Source: Escherichia coli (lineage in GTDB: Bacteria > Pseudomonadota > Gammaproteobacteria > Enterobacterales > Enterobacteriaceae). From it: DNA of 64,000 nt. Below, piece after piece: positions 38,919 through 54,874 of this stretch; the first letter of the stretch is position 1; the number at the start of each line of letters is the position of its first letter. The notes under the pieces are model-generated. The model searched no databases and was not told where the DNA came from. It worked only from the letters and a program-made list of their open reading frames with translations. Made by a program: the position numbers and the translations under genes. The stretch is from NCBI RefSeq assembly GCF_011045215.1, contig NZ_CP049201.1; one strand, written 5' to 3'.

Positions 38919-41092
<2,174 letters not shown>

Positions 41093-41321: not shown

Positions 41322-42113
41322 TTATGGTTCGATCGCCGTTTTGAGACGTTGTGTTGCTACATCAAAATAATGATCACTGGTTTCTATACCAATAAATTTG
41401 CGTCCTGCTTTCAGTGCAGCCACACCCGTTGTCCCTGACCCCATAAAAGGATCAAGGACTGTTCCACCACTATTCGCAGTCCTGACCAGCTCTGCCATAA
41501 GTTCTTCTGGCTTTCCGGTCGGGTGCATTTTCTTTGACGGGATAACCGGGAACGTCATGCAGCCGTCGAACGGACCTGAAGGCGATTTATCTAAATGGCC
41601 TTTGCTGCCCCAGACGATGTATTCACACTGATGCCGGAAATACCCCGTATGGGGTGTTCGTGACCCCCTTCCTTTGTTCCACACAATGATTCCACGCCAT
41701 GTAAAACCGCTGGCCTGAAACGCATCGGTTAAAGCTGGTAGTTGTCGCCAGTCAGTAAATACCAGGGCATAACCGCCCGGTCTGACCGCGCGGTGTGCCT
41801 GTGCCATCCATAATTGTGTCCAGTAAGCCCACGAACGGGCGTCCATGTTTTCACCCGCGAACCCATCAAAGCGGTGAAGGTTCCCGCCGTTCAGATATTT
41901 TGCATGGCTGCCCTGGTTGGTGCGTCCGGCCTTGTGTGTCGCACCCGAACTGTAAGGCGGGTCAGTGATTAAAGCATCAATGCTTTCTGGCTCAATCAGC
42001 GGCAATATTTCCAGCGCATTCCCACGACAGAGCGTGGCATTGTCAGTCTGATAAACCTTAGTGTGTTCCGGTGTATGTGCTGGTTGGTGCTGGATTGCGA
42101 TCCCCACGGTCAT
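41322..42113 (-). CDS. Phage-borne beta-class DNA amino-methyltransferase (N6-adenine or N4-cytosine)
   Basis: 263-aa ORF with DPPY (motif IV) near the N-terminus and FMGSGTT (motif I) near the C-terminus; 5' end overlaps the com-like gene. Confidence 0.8.
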   Translation of the reverse strand: MTVGIAIQHQPAHTPEHTKVYQTDNATLCRGNALEILPLIEPESIDALITDPPYSSGATHKAGRTNQGSHAKYLNGGNLHRFDGFAGENMDARSWAYWTQLWMAQAHRAVRPGGYALVFTDWRQLPALTDAFQASGFTWRGIIVWNKGRGSRTPHTGYFRHQCEYIVWGSKGHLDKSPSGPFDGCMTFPVIPSKKMHPTGKPEELMAELVRTANSGGTVLDPFMGSGTTGVAALKAGRKFIGIETSDHYFDVATQRLKTAIEP

Positions 42114-42255
42114 AACTCCTCATGTGTGTGGGGTGCTCGATGGCTCTCGTTATCTGGTTAAGTGTTTTGCAGCGCGGACATTTTATTTCAATGTAGTGAA
42201 ATGAGGCGCGGGCAAGTAGTTTGTTGCAATTTTTGCATCGTACATTTTGCGTCAT
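42058..42255 (-). CDS. Com-like zinc-finger translational activator (phage Mu Com family)
   Basis: RCKNCNKLL...IEIKCPRCK...EHPT matches the recalled Mu Com C4 zinc finger; AGAGG RBS about 8 nt upstream of ATG 42255; 56-nt overlap with methyltransferase start as com overlaps mom in Mu. Confidence 0.75.
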   Translation of the reverse strand: MTQNVRCKNCNKLLARASFHYIEIKCPRCKTLNQITRAIEHPTHMRSYDRGDRNPAPTSTYTGTH

Positions 42256-42302
42256 TTGCGGCACCTCTTGTGTGGTTACTGCTGCCGATATGATAGCAAA
42301 TC

Positions 42303-42337
42303 GATCGTTTTTATCGATCGGATTTATTGCATCGATC
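42303..42337. promoter_or_regulatory. Cluster of three GATC (Dam) sites upstream of the com-like gene
   Basis: Three copies of ATCGATC(G/T) at 42303, 42316 and 42334 within 35 bp, 48-82 bp upstream of the com start. Confidence 0.4.
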
Positions 42338-42362: not shown

Positions 42363-42402
42363 GGATACCAAAAAGAAAACCCGCAGTTTTTACGCTGCGG
42401 GC
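42363..42402 (-). terminator. Rho-independent terminator downstream of the hok-like ORF
   Basis: Minus strand reads CCCGCAG-CGTAAAAA-CTGCGGG followed by TTTTCTTTTT. Confidence 0.55.
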
Positions 42403-42490
42403 TTGTTGTTCATGTCTGTGAGATAGGGTGCCTTATCGACCTTACCCTGACAACCGATTGACGGGGGATTGCTCCCCCGTCGCGGTTTCC

Positions 42491-42631
42491 TTACTGCTTA
42501 CACTGTAAGAACGCCGCAAACTCCGCTCCCCAGAAGCTCATCCGTATTTCGCATAGCGAACCGTGCAGCATCCAGATGATGAGGATTGCCGTCACGCAGA
42601 ACGTGATGGCCGTAAGCGATTTTTGCGACAT
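42491..42631 (-). CDS. Hok/Gef-family type I toxin-like small membrane protein (46 aa)
   Basis: Manual translation MSQKSLTAITFCVTAILIIWMLHGSLCEIRMSFWGAEFAAFLQCKQ; AAGGAG RBS 8 nt upstream; single TMS then SLCEIR...G.E.AAF motif as in recalled Hok/Gef; not in ORF track (<60 aa). Confidence 0.5.
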   Translation of the reverse strand: MSQKSLTAITFCVTAILIIWMLHGSLCEIRMSFWGAEFAAFLQCKQ

Positions 42632-42821
42632 AGCACTTGCTCCTTTTCCGGAGAGGCGCTAACCTTTCACTTGTCAAGGTAATGCGGTTAGGGCCTCGGT
42701 TAAACAGAGATGTTTTCCGGGGCCTTTCCACATCTGGCCTTCGGGTATTCCCTCCGACCATCAGCCGAAAGGCACCCGCGCGTAATCTATCGCTTTTTTG
42801 TTACTCCGGCAATTCTGCCTG

Positions 42822-43082
42822 TTAATTCTGAGGTAAAGGCAAACTCATCTGATTGTTTCCCCTGTGTGAAGCTGGCAGATCATGCCATGGGATACCTTCT
42901 GATGAGTGAACGCCGGAGGCGTGTTTCGATGTAAATTTATGGAAAGCTTCCAGTGTTGAGAAGCATACGCCGCATTCCAGGTTGTTACACTGGTAATACT
43001 TTTGCCGCACGGTGTTTGAATCATTTTCCGGACGACTGGTGCGGATACGGGCAGATGCGCCACAAAGCGGACAACGGAACAT
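42822..43082 (-). CDS. ogr: Ogr/Delta-family zinc-finger late-gene transcriptional activator
   Basis: MFRCPLCGASARIRTSR...YYQCNNLECGVCFST matches the recalled P2 Ogr C4 zinc finger. Confidence 0.85.
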   Translation of the reverse strand: MFRCPLCGASARIRTSRPENDSNTVRQKYYQCNNLECGVCFSTLEAFHKFTSKHASGVHSSEGIPWHDLPASHRGNNQMSLPLPQN

Positions 43083-43124: not shown

Positions 43125-44234
43125 TCACTCTGTTTCCGCTATCCATTCCGGGATTTTTGCCTCAAGCTCAAGCTGTGTGGTAAAGCCACTGTTATCAATG
43201 GTGTGCTCGGCTTTTGCAATAATCCAGTCCTGATTATCAATCTCGCTTTTAAATCCTGTTACCGTGCCATGCATTTCGGGGTAGAGTTCTGCGCGTCCGC
43301 GTGCCAGTGTGATGGAGAATGATGCGGCTCCGCGTTGTAGTTGTTGCCACTTTGCCGCCGCTGCGCGTCTTGCTGCCTGCTCGTTCTGATAAGTCTTGCG
43401 TAACACAAACACATTGCCTTCCGCGCCTTCCATATAATCACCTTCACGGCTGCTGCTTTTCTCTTTTTTCGGTTTTGGCGGTTTGCGGCGTTTCACGCTG
43501 ACTTTTTTCTTTTTCCCGTAATTAAGATCAAGCCAGTAAGCGCGTACCCCCGTATACGCCTCGCGGTCAGCAATGCGGAACTGATGGCGATCGCCGCTGC
43601 TGCGTGTGATGGCGAACGAGGGCAACGGCTGGCCCTGTGCGTTCACGCCACCGCCGGGCATGATGAATAACAGATTACCGCTTTTTACCGTGGTGATTGC
43701 GCCCAGCATTTCCGCCATGCGCGTAAGGAAGGACATGTCACTTTCTTCGGTCTGGTCGGCGTGGTCGATTTCGATATCCATCAGCATTTCGCTGATTTGC
43801 GGTTTCAGACCGTACCGATGAGCGATGGCGGATACCACACGCTCAACGGTCACATCATGCCAGGACATCTCACGTTTAACGTTAAATTCATCCCGAAAAT
43901 CTGCGCTTCTGGCTGAAACAGTCAGCCTGTCCGGCGGTCCTTCGTGAGCGATTTCATCAACAATGTAAGTGCCTTTTTCTGTCAGCGGTTCTCCTTTCCA
44001 GCCAATGAGAACCGTCAGGCGCGCGCCCCGTGGCGGTAGCTGCAACTGACCATCCGCATCATCCAGCGTGATGGTGAGCTGGTCCGCCTCAAATCCCCGG
44101 TTGTCGGTCAGTGACAGGCTCATCAGGCGCTCGGCCACGCCTGACAGCGTTTTACCCTCCGCGAGAATATCAAAATCCGGCATTTTCACGGGGTCTGTGC
44201 CCTGACTGAGCAATTGCATGGTGGTATCGGTCAT
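43125..44234 (-). CDS. P2 gpD-like tail protein
   Basis: Start at MTDTTMQLLSQGTDPVKMPDFDILAEGKTLSGVAERLMSL (GGGAGG RBS); matches recalled P2 gpD; ORF-track start 44366 rejected. Confidence 0.85.
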   Translation of the reverse strand: MTDTTMQLLSQGTDPVKMPDFDILAEGKTLSGVAERLMSLSLTDNRGFEADQLTITLDDADGQLQLPPRGARLTVLIGWKGEPLTEKGTYIVDEIAHEGPPDRLTVSARSADFRDEFNVKREMSWHDVTVERVVSAIAHRYGLKPQISEMLMDIEIDHADQTEESDMSFLTRMAEMLGAITTVKSGNLLFIMPGGGVNAQGQPLPSFAITRSSGDRHQFRIADREAYTGVRAYWLDLNYGKKKKVSVKRRKPPKPKKEKSSSREGDYMEGAEGNVFVLRKTYQNEQAARRAAAAKWQQLQRGAASFSITLARGRAELYPEMHGTVTGFKSEIDNQDWIIAKAEHTIDNSGFTTQLELEAKIPEWIAETE

Positions 44235-44391
44235 CTGTTCCCTCCCTGTGCGGCATGGTCGCATGTGCGTGCGGAGGGGGTTACTGCTTTTTGTTGTCGC
44301 CGTGGCGGGAGAACGGCGCAGGGGTGAGATTACGCGCGTGGTGGGTGATGATTGTTGCCGAATCATTTAACGGATACAAGGGGCTGAAGCT

Positions 44392-49974: not shown

Positions 49975-50004
49975 AAAACCGCTAATGGTCAGATTAGCGG
50001 TTTT
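49975..50004. terminator. Hairpin between convergent gpU and invertase genes; probable bidirectional terminator, overlaps the last invertase codons
   Basis: AAAACCGCTAAT-GGTCAG-ATTAGCGGTTTT, 12-bp perfect stem flanked by A/T runs. Confidence 0.45.
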
Positions 50005-50611
50005 CATTTTCCTGAGTCTGCCTGGTTGTTTCTTCAGCCTGTATATCGCCTACAGGGTGATAACGATAAATCGTCGATATGCCGATGCCGTAAATGATCG
50101 CCAGTTGTTTCCTGTCATGACCGTTTTTGATCAGCCTTGCTATTTGCTCATGCTGTTCTTTTGTCAGCTTCGGGCGACGTCCGCCTGTGCGCCCCCGTGC
50201 GCGCGCTGCCGCCAGTCCGGCCAGTGTACGTTCAACAATTAATTCACGTTCCATTTCAGCCAGGGCACCCATCACGTGGAAGAAAAAACGCCCCATTGGA
50301 GAAGATGTATCTATGCTGTCGGTCAGACTGCGAAAATTAATCCCTCGCTCCCGTAGTTCTCCGACGAGAGAAATCAGATGTTTCATGCTTCGCCCAAGGC
50401 GATCCAGTTTCCAGACAACCAGCGTGTCACCTTTTTGAAGCCGCTTTAAAGCGCGTTTTAATCCCGGTCGGTCTGTCTTTGTCCCGCTTAATTTATCTTC
50501 AAATATTTGTTCACATCCTGCACAAACAAGAGCGTTTCGTTGCAGGTCTGTATTCTGGTCATTTGTTGATACCCTTACATAACCAATCAGCACACTGAAT
50601 CTCCCGTCCAA
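49994..50611 (-). CDS. Site-specific DNA invertase, serine recombinase of the Gin/Pin/Hin/Cin family
   Basis: LIGYVRVSTNDQNTDLQRNAL N-terminus with catalytic Ser and C-terminal HTH; true start may be the GTG at 50593. Confidence 0.9.
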   Translation of the reverse strand: MDGRFSVLIGYVRVSTNDQNTDLQRNALVCAGCEQIFEDKLSGTKTDRPGLKRALKRLQKGDTLVVWKLDRLGRSMKHLISLVGELRERGINFRSLTDSIDTSSPMGRFFFHVMGALAEMERELIVERTLAGLAAARARGRTGGRRPKLTKEQHEQIARLIKNGHDRKQLAIIYGIGISTIYRYHPVGDIQAEETTRQTQENENR

Positions 50612-50657
50612 AAGCGCAAATCATGCCATGCAGGCCGGAAACGGCCATTATCTAAAA

Positions 50658-50683
50658 CCTCGGTTTACAGGAAACGGTAAATC
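50658..50683. other. Inversion crossover site (gix/pix-like), left boundary of the invertible segment
   Basis: TTATCTAAAACCTCGGTTTACAGGAA; 12-bp half-sites around a 2-bp core; inverted copy at 53717-53742. Confidence 0.65.
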
Positions 50684-51618
50684 AGGCTTCTGGCGCATTA
50701 CAGAAAAACCAGAACGGCGCAGATATTCCGGGAAAAGATACCTTCACCAAAAATATTGGGGCCTGCCGCGCATATAGCGCATGGCTGGATATTGGTGGCG
50801 ATAGTCAGGTCTGGACAACCGCGCAATTTATTTCGTGGCTGGAGAGTCAGGGAGCATTTAACCATCCTTACTGGATGTGCAAAGGCTCATGGGCTTATGC
50901 AAATAATAAGGTCATTACAGATACAGGTTGCGGAAATATTTGTCTTGCAGGTGCTGTGGTGGAAGTTATTGGCACTCGCGGCGCAATGACCATACGCGTT
51001 ACCACGCCGAGCACGTCCAGCGGTGGAGGAATTACTAACGCTCAATTCACTTATATTAATCATGGTGATGCTTACGCTCCTGGCTGGCGACGAGACTACA
51101 ACACGAAAAATCAACAACCTGCATTTGCTTTAGGGCAAACAGGAAGCACTGTCGGAAATGATAAAGCTGTTGGCTGGAACTGGAATAGCGGGGTCTATAA
51201 CGCAAATATTGGTGGCGCATCGACATTAATCCTCCACTTCAATATGAATACGGGGAGCTGCCCTGCTGCACAGTTCCGCGTGAATTACAGAAATGGCGGA
51301 ATCTTTTATCGTTCAGCGCGTGATGGTTATGGCTTTGAAGCTGACTGGTCAGAGTTTTACACCACAACCCGCAAACCCTCTGCGGGAGATGTTGGTGCAT
51401 ATACGCAGGCAGAATGTAACTCAAGGTTTATTACAGGTATTCGCCTTGGCGGTCTGTCATCTGTTCAGACATGGAATGGTCCCGGCTGGTCTGACAGGTC
51501 AGGTTATGTCGTTACGGGTTCAGTTAACGGAAACCGTGATGAATTAATTGATACAACTCAGGCAAGGCCAATTCAGTATTGCATTAATGGGACGTGGTAT
51601 AACGCGGGGAGTATTTAA
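50684..51618 (+). CDS. Alternative tail fibre C-terminal receptor-binding domain (silent in this orientation; no start codon of its own)
   Basis: Frame open from the crossover site ([10 protein letters not shown]...) to stop at 51618, in the same codon phase relative to the site as the expressed copy; ends ...[12 protein letters not shown] like the expressed fibre. Confidence 0.7.
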
Positions 51619-51620
51619 CG

Positions 51621-52154
51621 ATGATGCACTTAAAAAACATTACTGCTGGCAACCCTAAAACAAAAGAGCAATACCAGCTAACGAAACAATTTAACATCAA
51701 ATGGCTTTATTCAGAGGATGGAAAAAACTGGTATGAGGAACAAAAGAATTTCCAGCCAGACACTTTGAAAATGGTCTATGACCATAACGGCGTTATTATT
51801 TGTATTGAAAAGGATGTTTCAGCAATTAATCCGGAAGGCGCAAGCGTCGTTGAATTACCTGATATTACAGCAAATCGCCGTGCTGACATTTCGGGTAAAT
51901 GGATGTTCAAAGATGGCGTAGTGGTAAAGCGAACTTATACCGAGGAAGAGCAGAGGCAGCAGGCGGAAAATGAAAAGCAAAGCCTGCTACAGCTCGTCAG
52001 GGATAAAACCCAGCTATGGGACTCACAGCTACGGCTGGGCATCATTTCCGACGAGAATAAACAAAAATTAACCGAGTGGATGCTCTATGCGCAGAAAGTC
52101 GAATCCACAGACACCTCCAGCCTGCCAGTAACGTTTCCAGGACAACCAGAATGA
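51621..52154 (+). CDS. Alternative tail fibre assembly chaperone (U'-like)
   Basis: 177-aa ORF starting [22 protein letters not shown], paralogous to the minus-strand chaperone at 52183-52710. Confidence 0.8.
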
Positions 52155-52182
52155 GACAAGGCCCGCTATCGGGCCTTAATTT

Positions 52183-52710
52183 TTATTCAGGCTTTTGTGG
52201 CCATTCAGGATTTGCCGTATCCACACGGCTGACCAGAACACTGTAGCGTTCCCATGACTCCAGTCGTGTGCGTTCCTCATCCGTCGCCATATTCAGCCTG
52301 ACAGCGCGTTCCAGTGGCTGAATAACGCTTTCAGCTTCGGAAAGTAACGCAGCCTTTTGTGATTCGGCCTGTTGTTGTTGCTCGTCTGCCGTATAAATCC
52401 GTTTAACTACAGCTCCATCCTTAAACATCCACTTTCCTGAACCATCAGCGCGGCGGTTGGCTGTAATATCGGGAACCTCAACGACGCTAAAACCTTCAGG
52501 GTTAAGCGTGGAGGCATCTTTAGTAATGGCGACAATAATATTATTTGCATCGTAAACAATCTTTATTGTGTCTGGCTGAAAGTTTTTCACTTCCTCATAC
52601 CAGTTTTTTCCGTCCTCAGAGTAAAGCCAGATAACTCCGTGTTTCTTTGTTAACTCATACTGTTCCAGTGTTTTAGCGTTACCCGCTTTTATGTTCTTTA
52701 AGTGCATCAT
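52183..52710 (-). CDS. Tail fibre assembly chaperone (P2 gpG / Mu U-like), currently expressed orientation
   Basis: 175-aa ORF starting [22 protein letters not shown] directly downstream of the tail fibre gene. Confidence 0.8.
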
Positions 52711-52711
52711 A

Positions 52712-54874
52712 TTAAACGCTCGCTACATTATACCAGGTGCCATTTATATACTTTTGAACGGGTCTGTAATAAACGCCCGCTATATTATCGGCAGAGTTGG
52801 AGCCTGTATCCTGAACATTAATACCAGACAATACATGACCTGACGGGCACTGGAAATTCCATGTTTGCCAGTTGTTCACTCCATAATATTGCTGTGAACC
52901 AAGTCGAACATCTTTCACATATCTGGAATCAAAATTGCCATAATTGCCGGGAATAACTTGCGCACCGCAAAGCCAGTTCCCGTTATTATCCATGTACGCC
53001 TGACCATCGGTGCCATTGGCTGTCCTTGAGTTATTAATCATGTAGATGCCAAATTGCTTATTTCCCAGACCGCCAATCATAAATTTTCGGTCGGCATGGT
53101 CCTGACGGAGCAAGGCCTGGGCGCTATCAGTGTTAACTATATTTTTCCCAAAGATAGCGTTGTTATCGCGCATCTGAATCCACATACCATTACCGCTGTT
53201 AATAGCAAAACGGTCTGAAAGTGTTTCTCCTGAAACATTAAGGCCACGCCCCATCGAAACAGCGCCAGTAGCGTTATTAATCCATAATGGCCTTAATCCG
53301 TTATAAGTCCCCATGTTGTCACCGGAGTTTGTCAACATGAAGTATGTATTTGAACCATCATTACGAATAAAGAATCCGTAACTACCATAAGCAATACGTA
53401 GGCCGTTTGCTGATTTTGATATGACTTCGCCATTTACAATGGCATTGACAAGAACATACAAAGCATCCCATTTAAGATTCATCAGGTCTTTTGTTGTGGT
53501 GCCTTGTTTGCTTCTCCATTTGAAATATTCATTGCCGTTGTCGCCTGTTTCAAACCACATGTATGAATCAGTATCGCTGTCGGCATCATTTTTAAATCCA
53601 ATCTTTGCCCAGTCAGTATTTCGAATCCAGGCAAGGATTGAGTCGTTTTCAAAAGTAAGTCCACCGGACAAGGTATCGCCTGTCTTTTGAACGGCGTTAC
53701 CAGCCTTGTTTACCGTTTCCTGTAAACCGAGGTATTCGATAACGGCGGCAACGGTCGATTTCGCAAGAATATCCCGCCCAACTTTTGTCAGGGTTGCCAA
53801 GCTGGCAACATCATTCCCCGTAAAATACGGAAACCTGTCTGCCGCAGTAGCAAGCCCGGCCAGCGCCGTCAGGGTGGCATCTTTCGGTTGCTTACCCGCA
53901 AGCGCGTTAGTCATGGTGGTCGCAAAATTCGGGTCGTTGCCCAACGCCGCAGCCAGCTCGTTCAGCGTATTCAGTGCGTCAGGCGACGAGTCCACGAGGG
54001 CAGCGATCGCAGCCATAACATAAGCCGTGCTTGCGATCTGAGTATTGTTAGTACCTTTTGGCGCAGTTGGTGTTGTTGGTGTTCCGGTCAGTGCCGGGCT
54101 GTTTAATGGGGCTTTCTTGTTCGTTTCATCCATTACCGCCTTAACCGCTTTTGGTGTCGCTGCCAGCGTTTCAGACGTGCTGTTGGTTGCACTACTAAGC
54201 TGGACAAGGCCTTTTCGCGTTGTAGTGGCGTCCTGAGCGGTATATTTTCCGTTAGCCAGGTCATACGCGGCCTTTACTGCTTTCGGCGTTGCAGCCTGCG
54301 TTTCAGAATCGTTGTTAGTGGCGCTACTGAGTTGAACAAAGCCTTTTGCGGTCAGCGAGGCATCCGGGTGACGTCGTGACTGTTCATGCTCTTTCAGTTT
54401 GTCATTCACGTAATCCACTGTGGCCATAACCATGGTGTTATCCACGGTAAGCGCCACGGTGGCAGTGCTGGATACGGTCAGAATGGTGCGAAATGTTTGT
54501 GCACGTCCGGACCCTTCGGCAACGGCTGGCTTGTAACTTTCGGCAGTATTGCCCACCGCGATCAAATCGCCGTGCTCATCAAACACACCAATTTCCCGGA
54601 TCCAGAATCCGCCCGTTTCAGGAGGAATAACCAGCTCTGCAATAATGCGGTTCTGATGTGTTGCGTCCAGGATGATGCGATTAACAGTATGTCGCCACAC
54701 CTCATGCACCAGACGGGTCTGCTTACTGTCTGGTGTGGGCAATGTACCGCCACCGTCGCCCACGGCCATATGAGTCAGGCGGACAGGCTTACCATCTGGC
54801 GCGGCTGCCTGAGCTAATTTTTTGGCACCCGTATCGGTGATAACGGTTTTAAATTTTCGTGTTGTGGTACTCAT
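52712..54874 (-). CDS. Tail fibre protein (P2 gpH-like) with constant N-terminal part and invertible C-terminal part
   Basis: 720-aa ORF; N-terminal region matches recalled P2 gpH; the crossover site falls at ...[13 protein letters not shown]... Confidence 0.9.
53717..53742. other. Inversion crossover site (gix/pix-like), right boundary, inside the tail fibre gene
   Basis: TTCCTGTAAACCGAGGTATTCGATAA, inverted relative to 50658-50683 with 17 of 17 identical bases from the outer end and minor divergence in the other half-site. Confidence 0.65.

Follow-up and report, generated by a model that had tools for sequence, protein, structure and literature searches.

A probable hok/sok-type toxin-antitoxin cassette, of a subfamily without a conserved mok frame, in a P2-like prophage of Escherichia coli

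The segment from approximately 42812 to 42368 of the window, by which we mean the whole 64,000-nucleotide stretch of E. coli chromosome analysed here, very probably makes up an entire type I toxin-antitoxin cassette of the hok/sok type, which a P2-like prophage carries at its right end as accessory cargo. The minus strand encodes a 46-residue Hok-family membrane peptide, and around its gene we have placed previously unannotated RNA parts, all of them predicted: the ends of the mRNA, the elements by which these ends pair, and the promoter and position of an antisense RNA. The toxin itself is already known, since it is annotated, catalogued and included in a toxicity panel. The only mildly new angle is that, on sequence comparison, the Hok subfamily found in the window seems to do without mok. 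The interpretation in a first-pass annotation of this DNA is partly supported: most of it holds, and the part on mok does not.

The toxin gene (42491 to 42631, minus strand) consists of 46 codons plus a stop, with its ATG at 42631 and its stop at 42491, and is preceded by an AAGGAG ribosome site at 42645-42640, 8 nt 5' of the ATG; both the reading frame and its strong ribosome site are exactly where the first-pass annotation had put them. The translated peptide is MSQKSLTAITFCVTAILIIWMLHGSLCEIRMSFWGAEFAAFLQCKQ, of which residues 6-22 (LTAITFCVTAILIIWML) are hydrophobic and carry no charge. The claim that it belongs to the Hok/Gef family holds in a profile search, with a significant match to Pfam PF01848 (HOK_GEF; E 4.8e-7, 29.7 bits) that places residues 7-44 on model positions 5-42 of 42. 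PHROG_251, labelled "MokW-like host killing", matches with an E-value of 1.3e-22. The top NCBIfam model is HokA (NF007290; E 2.2e-8), and neither of the two NCBIfam Hok models reaches its curated cut-off with this peptide: 34 bits against 89 for NF007290, an equivalog model, and 21.6 bits against 73 for the Hok family toxin model NF007279. We therefore dropped the assignment to HokA; the toxin belongs to a separate subfamily of 46-residue peptides. Seven positions, C12, T14, L26, C27, E28, E37 and C44, correspond at a constant offset of 4 to the residues C16, T18, L30, C31, E32, E41 and C/Y48, whose reported conservation exceeds 80% across 1,264 Hok peptides. A search of 5.8 billion proteins returned 67 clusters of homologs, nearly all exactly 46 residues long, from E. 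coli, Shigella, Salmonella and Klebsiella oxytoca; these clusters carry precomputed PF01848 annotations, and the 46-residue relatives are all labelled Hok/Gef by NCBI. Given the Pfam and PHROG_251 matches, the 67 homologous clusters and an Rfam match to the leader (E 5e-9, described below), the 46-codon frame is, as judged by homology, a real Hok/Gef toxin gene, far beyond what chance would produce in so small an ORF.

The first-pass annotation had regarded this ORF as unlisted, which does not stand. RefSeq names the identical ORF (WP_000078916.1, "Hok/Gef family protein") in genomes that are 100% identical in DNA over our 601-nt query, and phage records name it too, with the label "MokW-like host killing". 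The locus is common: approximately 1,185 of 5,426 complete E. coli genomes, roughly a fifth, carry it when at least 80% of the 601-nt query is required. It is also present at 94-98% identity in the P2-like phages Chuche, P88, Xuanwuvirus P884B11 and 500465-2, and Stx-converting phages have an 80%-identical copy that encodes a member of the same 46-residue subfamily. Table S2 of a 2026 preprint by Escalera-Maurer et al. (bioRxiv 10.1101/2025.08.07.668861) lists the peptide of the window as 72_1621, a member of the "high-abundance cluster" 72. An overexpression panel of Hok homologs in the same study included 72_1621 and found 42 of 45 toxic, the 3 non-toxic ones being 19_179, 60_1482 and 69_1540, so that 72_1621 is not among them; this preprint result refers to overexpression from a constant ribosome site and not to native regulation (bioRxiv 10.1101/2025.08.07.668861). 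The same work reports an approximately four-fold enrichment of hok genes in prophages (bioRxiv 10.1101/2025.08.07.668861).

The window holds the right-hand portion of the prophage. The chromosomal gene flk lies at 40097-41092, followed by a DNA methyltransferase gene (41322-42113), a com-like zinc-finger gene (42058-42264), the cassette, ogr (42822-43082) and gpD (43125-44366), with tail and head genes continuing past gpD to the end of the window. In E. coli SCU-152, a P2-like prophage of approximately 36 kb that is identical over the 601-nt query sits between flk and pdxB. The location proposed earlier, on the prophage between ogr and com, is thus borne out, with ogr on one side and the com-like and methyltransferase genes (41322-42264) on the other. 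The order ogr-hok is found in phages Chuche and P88 as well. It recurs in a Salmonella P2-like prophage beside ihfA/pheT (L009), where peptide identity is only 61%; since the order is kept at this distance, the site just downstream of ogr is a recurrent cargo site.

To compare the locus with its relatives, we assembled 71 unique copies, 68 of which have an intact 46-codon ORF. They were gathered from contigs encoding protein homologs and by an exact DNA pattern in IMG/VR; as that pattern served to select loci, 42526-42504 is invariant among them partly by construction. The 5' region is missing from one Salmonella copy (L006). As a reference we used an R1-type locus (L011), chosen through a match to R1 Hok at 100% identity.

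Directly after the ogr stop codon, and 7 nt upstream of a conserved GGGTGCC, a putative hok promoter can be read from the sequence (42784 to 42812, minus strand), with a -35 of TTGCCG (42812-42807), a 17-nt spacer and a -10 of TAGATT (42789-42784). Nearly all relatives have TAGATT, TAGAAT or TAAATT as their -10. With 8 of 12 consensus matches this promoter falls under the threshold of the promoter scan, which reported neither it nor the antisense promoter described below; both were placed by alignment with the relatives and R1. Transcription probably starts at the conserved 5' end, which would give a hok-like mRNA of approximately 406 nt (42372 to 42777, minus strand) running from GGGUGCC to an intrinsic terminator (42368 to 42404, minus strand) composed of a 10-bp stem (42404-42377), an 8-nt loop and a T-run, 87 nt past the hok stop. 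A perfect and conserved hairpin, GACGGGGGAGCAATCCCCCGTC (42460 to 42481, minus strand), begins 10 nt past the same stop. A hairpin at the 3' end of the ORF and a terminator approximately 90 nt downstream had both been noted from the letters of this DNA, and both are confirmed. The span then assigned to the module, 42363-42761, does contain the features described for it and misses the promoter and the first 16 nt of the predicted mRNA. In the aligned relatives, conservation extends from approximately 42790 to 42424 and drops right after the fbi-like element discussed below.

A covariance search gives a full-length match (model positions 1-157) of the Rfam family RF01794 ("sok") to 42777-42618 on the minus strand, with an E-value of 5e-9. 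Its 48.4 bits remain under the gathering score of 59, and at gathering thresholds a search of the whole window reports only a tRNA. Relatives score 38-57 bits with RF01794, compared with 87 for the R1-type locus. Despite the name of the family, we rejected this match as the antisense RNA itself, because the model lies on the hok-sense strand here and in the R1-type locus, where it ends at the hok ATG. What the match establishes is therefore homology of the leader; it does not show which strand the small RNA is read from.

The predicted mRNA has a minimum free energy (MFE) of -178 kcal/mol (z = -7.3 versus shuffles), and in this fold the 5' end is paired with the 3' region. Its first 15 nt, a tac-like element GGGUGCCUUUCGGCU (42763 to 42777, minus strand), form 15 pairs with GGUCGA.AAGGCACCC at 42441-42426, i.e., with an fbi-like element GGUCGAUAAGGCACCC (42426 to 42441, minus strand) that is complementary to the 5' end. 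Pairing of tac with fbi in this manner is the defining trait of hok mRNAs. The same tac-like element has an alternative partner, GGUCGGAGGGAAUACCC (42744 to 42760, minus strand), with which a 3'-truncated RNA lacking the fbi-like element is predicted to fold into a 5' hairpin. Among 35 distinct combinations of 5' and 3' sequences, the end-to-end duplex has -22 to -29 kcal/mol in 33 despite differing fbi sequences (shuffled mean approximately -10), and the 5' hairpin has -14 to -21 kcal/mol in 33. As modelled, this choice between end pairing and a 5' hairpin that excludes it follows the logic of the 3'-processing switch in R1. The ribosome site and start codon lie in local helices of a translation-control region (42640 to 42661, minus strand): AAGGAG (42645-42640) forms a small hairpin with CUCC (42653-42650), and a second helix joins UAGCGC (42661-42656) to GUGCUA (42636-42631), whose last base is the A of the hok start codon.

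This architecture persists in a consensus fold computed from 63 distinct sequences. Each position in the core of the tac-fbi duplex is paired in 61-63 of the 63, and each position of the ribosome-site and start-codon helices in 62-63. Also retained are the post-stop hairpin, the hairpin that forms the complement of the Sok terminator, and a helix joining the distant segments 42673-42667 and 42451-42457. Several of these helices carry compensatory changes; in the post-stop hairpin they affect three pairs, with counts of 55:7 for GC/CG, 47:14 for GC/AU and 47:10:4 for AU/CG/GC. Copies from E. coli through to Klebsiella preserve all of the regulatory RNA elements.

An antisense Sok-like RNA had been expected by the first-pass annotation without being located, and homology now supplies a predicted position for it on the plus strand. 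Its putative promoter (42637 to 42665) combines a TTGCTC -35 (42637-42642), which overlaps the hok ribosome site as read on the other strand, with a -10 of TAACCT (42660-42665) at a spacing of 17 nt. Among the 68 relatives, 50 share the TTGCTC hexamer, 65 have the 17-nt spacing, and the -10 reads TAACCT in 64 and TATCCT, the R1 sequence, in 3. The R1-type locus has the same layout, TTGCGC-17-TATCCT. The RNA itself would be approximately 57-62 nt long and extend from around 42672 to 42730, with both ends assigned by prediction (the 3' end near 42728-42733), and would consist of a variable, single-stranded 5' tail of approximately 20 nt followed by the hairpin GGGCCUCGGUUAAACAGAGAUGUUUUCCGGGGCCU. 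This hairpin has -30.2 kcal/mol (z = -3.7), and its helix is backed by the consensus fold; no clear U-run follows it, and the terminator scan reported none there. The tail region occurs in 29 sequence variants among the 68 loci between fixed flanks, and such hypervariability would fit a determinant of specificity.

How these parts could work together can be proposed by analogy with R1. The mRNA of approximately 400 nt would be made in an inert form, with the tac-like element (42777-42763) paired to the fbi-like element (42441-42426) and the ribosome site and start codon buried. From the constitutive promoter in the leader, a short and unstable Sok-like RNA (approximately 42672-42730) would be produced, and its variable tail would recognise the leader, so that the message stays silent or is cleaved by RNase III. 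Slow trimming from the 3' end would remove the fbi-like element, allow the alternative 5' hairpin to form and open the message. Should the supply of antisense RNA then stop, Hok would be made and would damage the inner membrane. Plausible triggers would be loss of the element, a general shut-off of transcription caused by an infecting phage, or induction of the prophage. Our best guess for the role is maintenance of a selfish element triggered by transcription shut-off, possibly with phage exclusion or help in lysis.

In R1, translation of mok up to the hok ribosome site is the required part (PMC9841398), and the first-pass annotation saw a mok-like counterpart in a longer ORF that would span hok completely. 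Such an ORF exists (87 codons, 42498 to 42761, minus strand, in another frame), and it covers 134 of the 141 nt of hok, leaving the last 7 nt (42491-42497) beyond its end. If it were a true mok, needed for hok translation and targeted by the antisense RNA, the locus would be a canonical hok/mok/sok system. However, its ATG lies 16 nt from the 5' end of the mRNA, inside the tac-like helix and without a ribosome site, and approximately 30 nt upstream of the region complementary to the predicted antisense RNA. The full ORF with its start codon is kept in just 5 of the 68 unique intact relatives, and in 44 the frame has no ATG, GTG or TTG upstream of hok. In phage Chuche, 96% identical in DNA, the open stretch of this frame is confined to -43 to +83 and lacks a start codon. 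On comparative grounds we reject this ORF as mok; it is, judged by its distribution, a chance open frame, and the canonical reading, already largely refuted, is scarcely credible. A search of all three frames in the 68 relatives found no conserved leader ORF that reaches the hok ribosome site, and 36 of them have no leader ORF of any kind, starting with ATG, GTG or TTG, that does so. The R1 mechanism cannot be transferred unchanged to the window locus. Since the subfamily lacks a conserved mok, the link from antisense RNA to hok translation would be either direct, through structure or cleavage, or made via a short and poorly conserved ORF in the leader. This ORF (19 codons, 42674 to 42733, minus strand) starts with the ATG at 42733, preceded by AAGG at 42742-42739, ends with TGA at 42676-42674, and is a possible candidate for a mok substitute in view of its position: ribosomes translating it could open the helices at the hok start, with the antisense RNA blocking initiation. 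The ATG and the upstream AAGG are present in 56 of the 68 relatives, the ATG falls within approximately 3 nt of the 3' end of the antisense-complementary region, and in most relatives the ORF ends 27-57 nt before the hok ATG, near the helix formed by 42661-42656 and 42636-42631. Against this, the ORF is missing from 12 of 68, including five aligned Salmonella and Klebsiella loci that keep all other elements, and both its length (8 to 78 codons) and the position of its stop vary. In addition, the ATG at 42733 takes part in a conserved helix formed with the 5' element, and this helix alone could explain its conservation. We consider a mok-like role of the short ORF rather unlikely. Tentatively, and with less than even confidence, we suggest from these comparisons that the 46-residue Hok subfamily (cluster 72) may be a natural hok/sok system without mok, controlled by refolding or cleavage alone or through the short, non-overlapping ORF at 42733.

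The remaining alternatives concern function. In E. coli K-12, a number of hok loci on the chromosome are decayed or silent, and the locus in the window could likewise be a remnant without a current function, in line with the weak consensus matches of both promoters and with the loss of the 5' region from the Salmonella copy mentioned above. Yet 68 of the 71 unique copies retain an intact 46-codon ORF, the regulatory RNA elements are maintained across genera with compensatory changes, and the identical peptide stands outside the three non-toxic members of the overexpression panel (bioRxiv 10.1101/2025.08.07.668861). Decay is, on this evidence, very improbable. A different case is that of the same cassette serving the phage, by promoting lysis and the release of progeny upon induction instead of maintenance or exclusion. 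With hokW-sokW deleted, prophage Sp5 released half as much phage following mitomycin C treatment, and HokW appeared upon induction (PMC8621323); moreover, Stx phages, as noted, carry a copy of the 46-residue subfamily. HokW, however, belongs to another Hok cluster (51 residues, HokD-like), the Sp5 precedent does not come from a P2-like phage, and the locus in the window has its own putative promoter outside the lysis operon. We regard such a role as unlikely for the window cassette, and keep maintenance of a selfish element as our best guess.

Beyond correct annotation, the importance of the locus is small: the gene is named and common, its peptide is catalogued, and prophage-borne hok/sok has been described before. 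The added value lies in the predicted RNA parts and in a subfamily without a conserved mok, which offers a natural comparison to R1 for the coupling between antisense RNA and hok translation.

Among known systems, HokA of E. coli K-12 resembles the toxin of the window in the pattern W-M...SLCE...AAFL.CK and in a C-terminal cysteine. It is not an orthologue, given the 34 bits versus a cut-off of 89, and at 60% identity it falls into cluster 93 as opposed to 72. A working prophage-borne type I system has been demonstrated by experiment in hokW-sokW of the Stx2 prophage Sp5 of E. coli O157:H7 Sakai (PMC8621323), which shares with our locus the prophage location and the hok/sok type; pipelines moreover label the window ORF "MokW-like host killing". 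We rejected identity of the toxin with HokW, whose 51 residues (MKQQKAM...) place it in another cluster, the HokD-like cluster 35, and whose phage is lambdoid and not P2-like. In cluster 72 itself, 72_1621 is identical to the window peptide and 72_1589 is the Stx-phage variant (L003 in our set), both being part of the toxicity panel; that study dealt with coding sequences only and explicitly left Mok, Sok and the mRNA elements undefined (bioRxiv 10.1101/2025.08.07.668861). From hok/sok of R1, the cassette differs in the length of its toxin (46 versus 52 residues, with 39% identity over 31 residues by BLASTP and a shared core of C.T...SLCEIR...E.AAF), in having no conserved mok frame, in an Rfam score below the gathering threshold, and in being carried by a prophage and not a plasmid. 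With R1 it has in common a small Hok membrane toxin with the SLCEIR...E.AAF core, a leader (approximately 146 nt here) that is matched by the same Rfam model, the predicted pairing of tac and fbi with an alternative 5' hairpin, and an antisense promoter, predicted in our locus, with a -35 that overlaps the hok ribosome site on the opposite strand and is followed by a 17-nt spacer and a -10 of TA(A/T)CCT.

In the R1-type hok/sok plasmid locus used as reference (L011), the match to the Rfam "sok antitoxin" model, RF01794, is on the strand that encodes hok, at 332-503, and runs up to the hok start codon. The match in the window (42618-42777) likewise lies on the hok-sense strand and reaches the hok start codon. 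A match to this model thus identifies the hok leader and does not show which strand carries the antisense RNA. In the same plasmid locus, an IncFII hok/sok variant, the ATG that corresponds to the mok start precedes the hok ATG by 57 nt (444-503) and is in frame with it, with no intervening stop codon; the RefSeq annotation of the locus contains only a truncated Hok CDS. For R1, mutation coordinates give a mok-to-hok spacing of 58 nt (PMC9841398), so that mok is out of frame with hok there.

Related copies of the 46-aa hok subfamily occur in Salmonella enterica. Two loci (L004, 2501-3131, and L005, 2501-3135) hold them as a tandem pair approximately 490 nt apart, each copy with its own leader and its own fbi-like element, the 3' partner of the mRNA 5' end; in L005, a YafO-toxin gene adjoins the pair. 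A further locus (L006, 2331-2500) retains the hok ORF and fbi-like element, with unrelated sequence in place of the hok promoter and the 5' tac-like element, and this hok probably represents a copy in decay at the edge of a prophage. In a Salmonella P2-like prophage (L009), the enterobacterial sRNA STnc540 gives a strong Rfam match (171.6 bits, 2795-2992), which directly follows the hok cassette on its downstream side, where the prophage meets ihfA.

Elsewhere in the P2-like prophage of the window, a recombinase gene (49994-50611, minus strand) adjoins oppositely oriented tail-fibre and tail-fibre-assembly genes (50875-52154, plus strand; 52183-54874, minus strand), and the whole of 49994-54874 looks like an invertible host-range segment. 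Past the window end, the E. coli SCU-152 prophage (L132) has ParM-like and partition/stability-like genes at 28732-30007, together with a frameshifted DUF3800 gene; this stretch is placed between the portal and replication genes of the P2-like prophage.

From ogr to flk, where the prophage ends, extends a cargo block made up of hok, a com-like zinc-finger gene, and a DNA methyltransferase gene (263-aa product), the latter two at 41322-42264 on the minus strand, with the com-like gene overlapping the methyltransferase start. Upstream of the com-like gene, 3 of the 7 GATCGAT sites in the window are packed into 38 nt (42300-42337) on the minus strand, at 42337-42331, 42319-42313, and 42306-42300. 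These sites overlap small palindromes, and the cluster also overlaps the sole promoter-like site returned by the scan (42317-42290). The Mu com-mom operon is controlled by Dam methylation and OxyR, and the arrangement of GATCGAT sites before a com-like gene recalls that control. Unlike in Mu com-mom, however, the enzyme encoded downstream in the window is an ordinary DNA methyltransferase.
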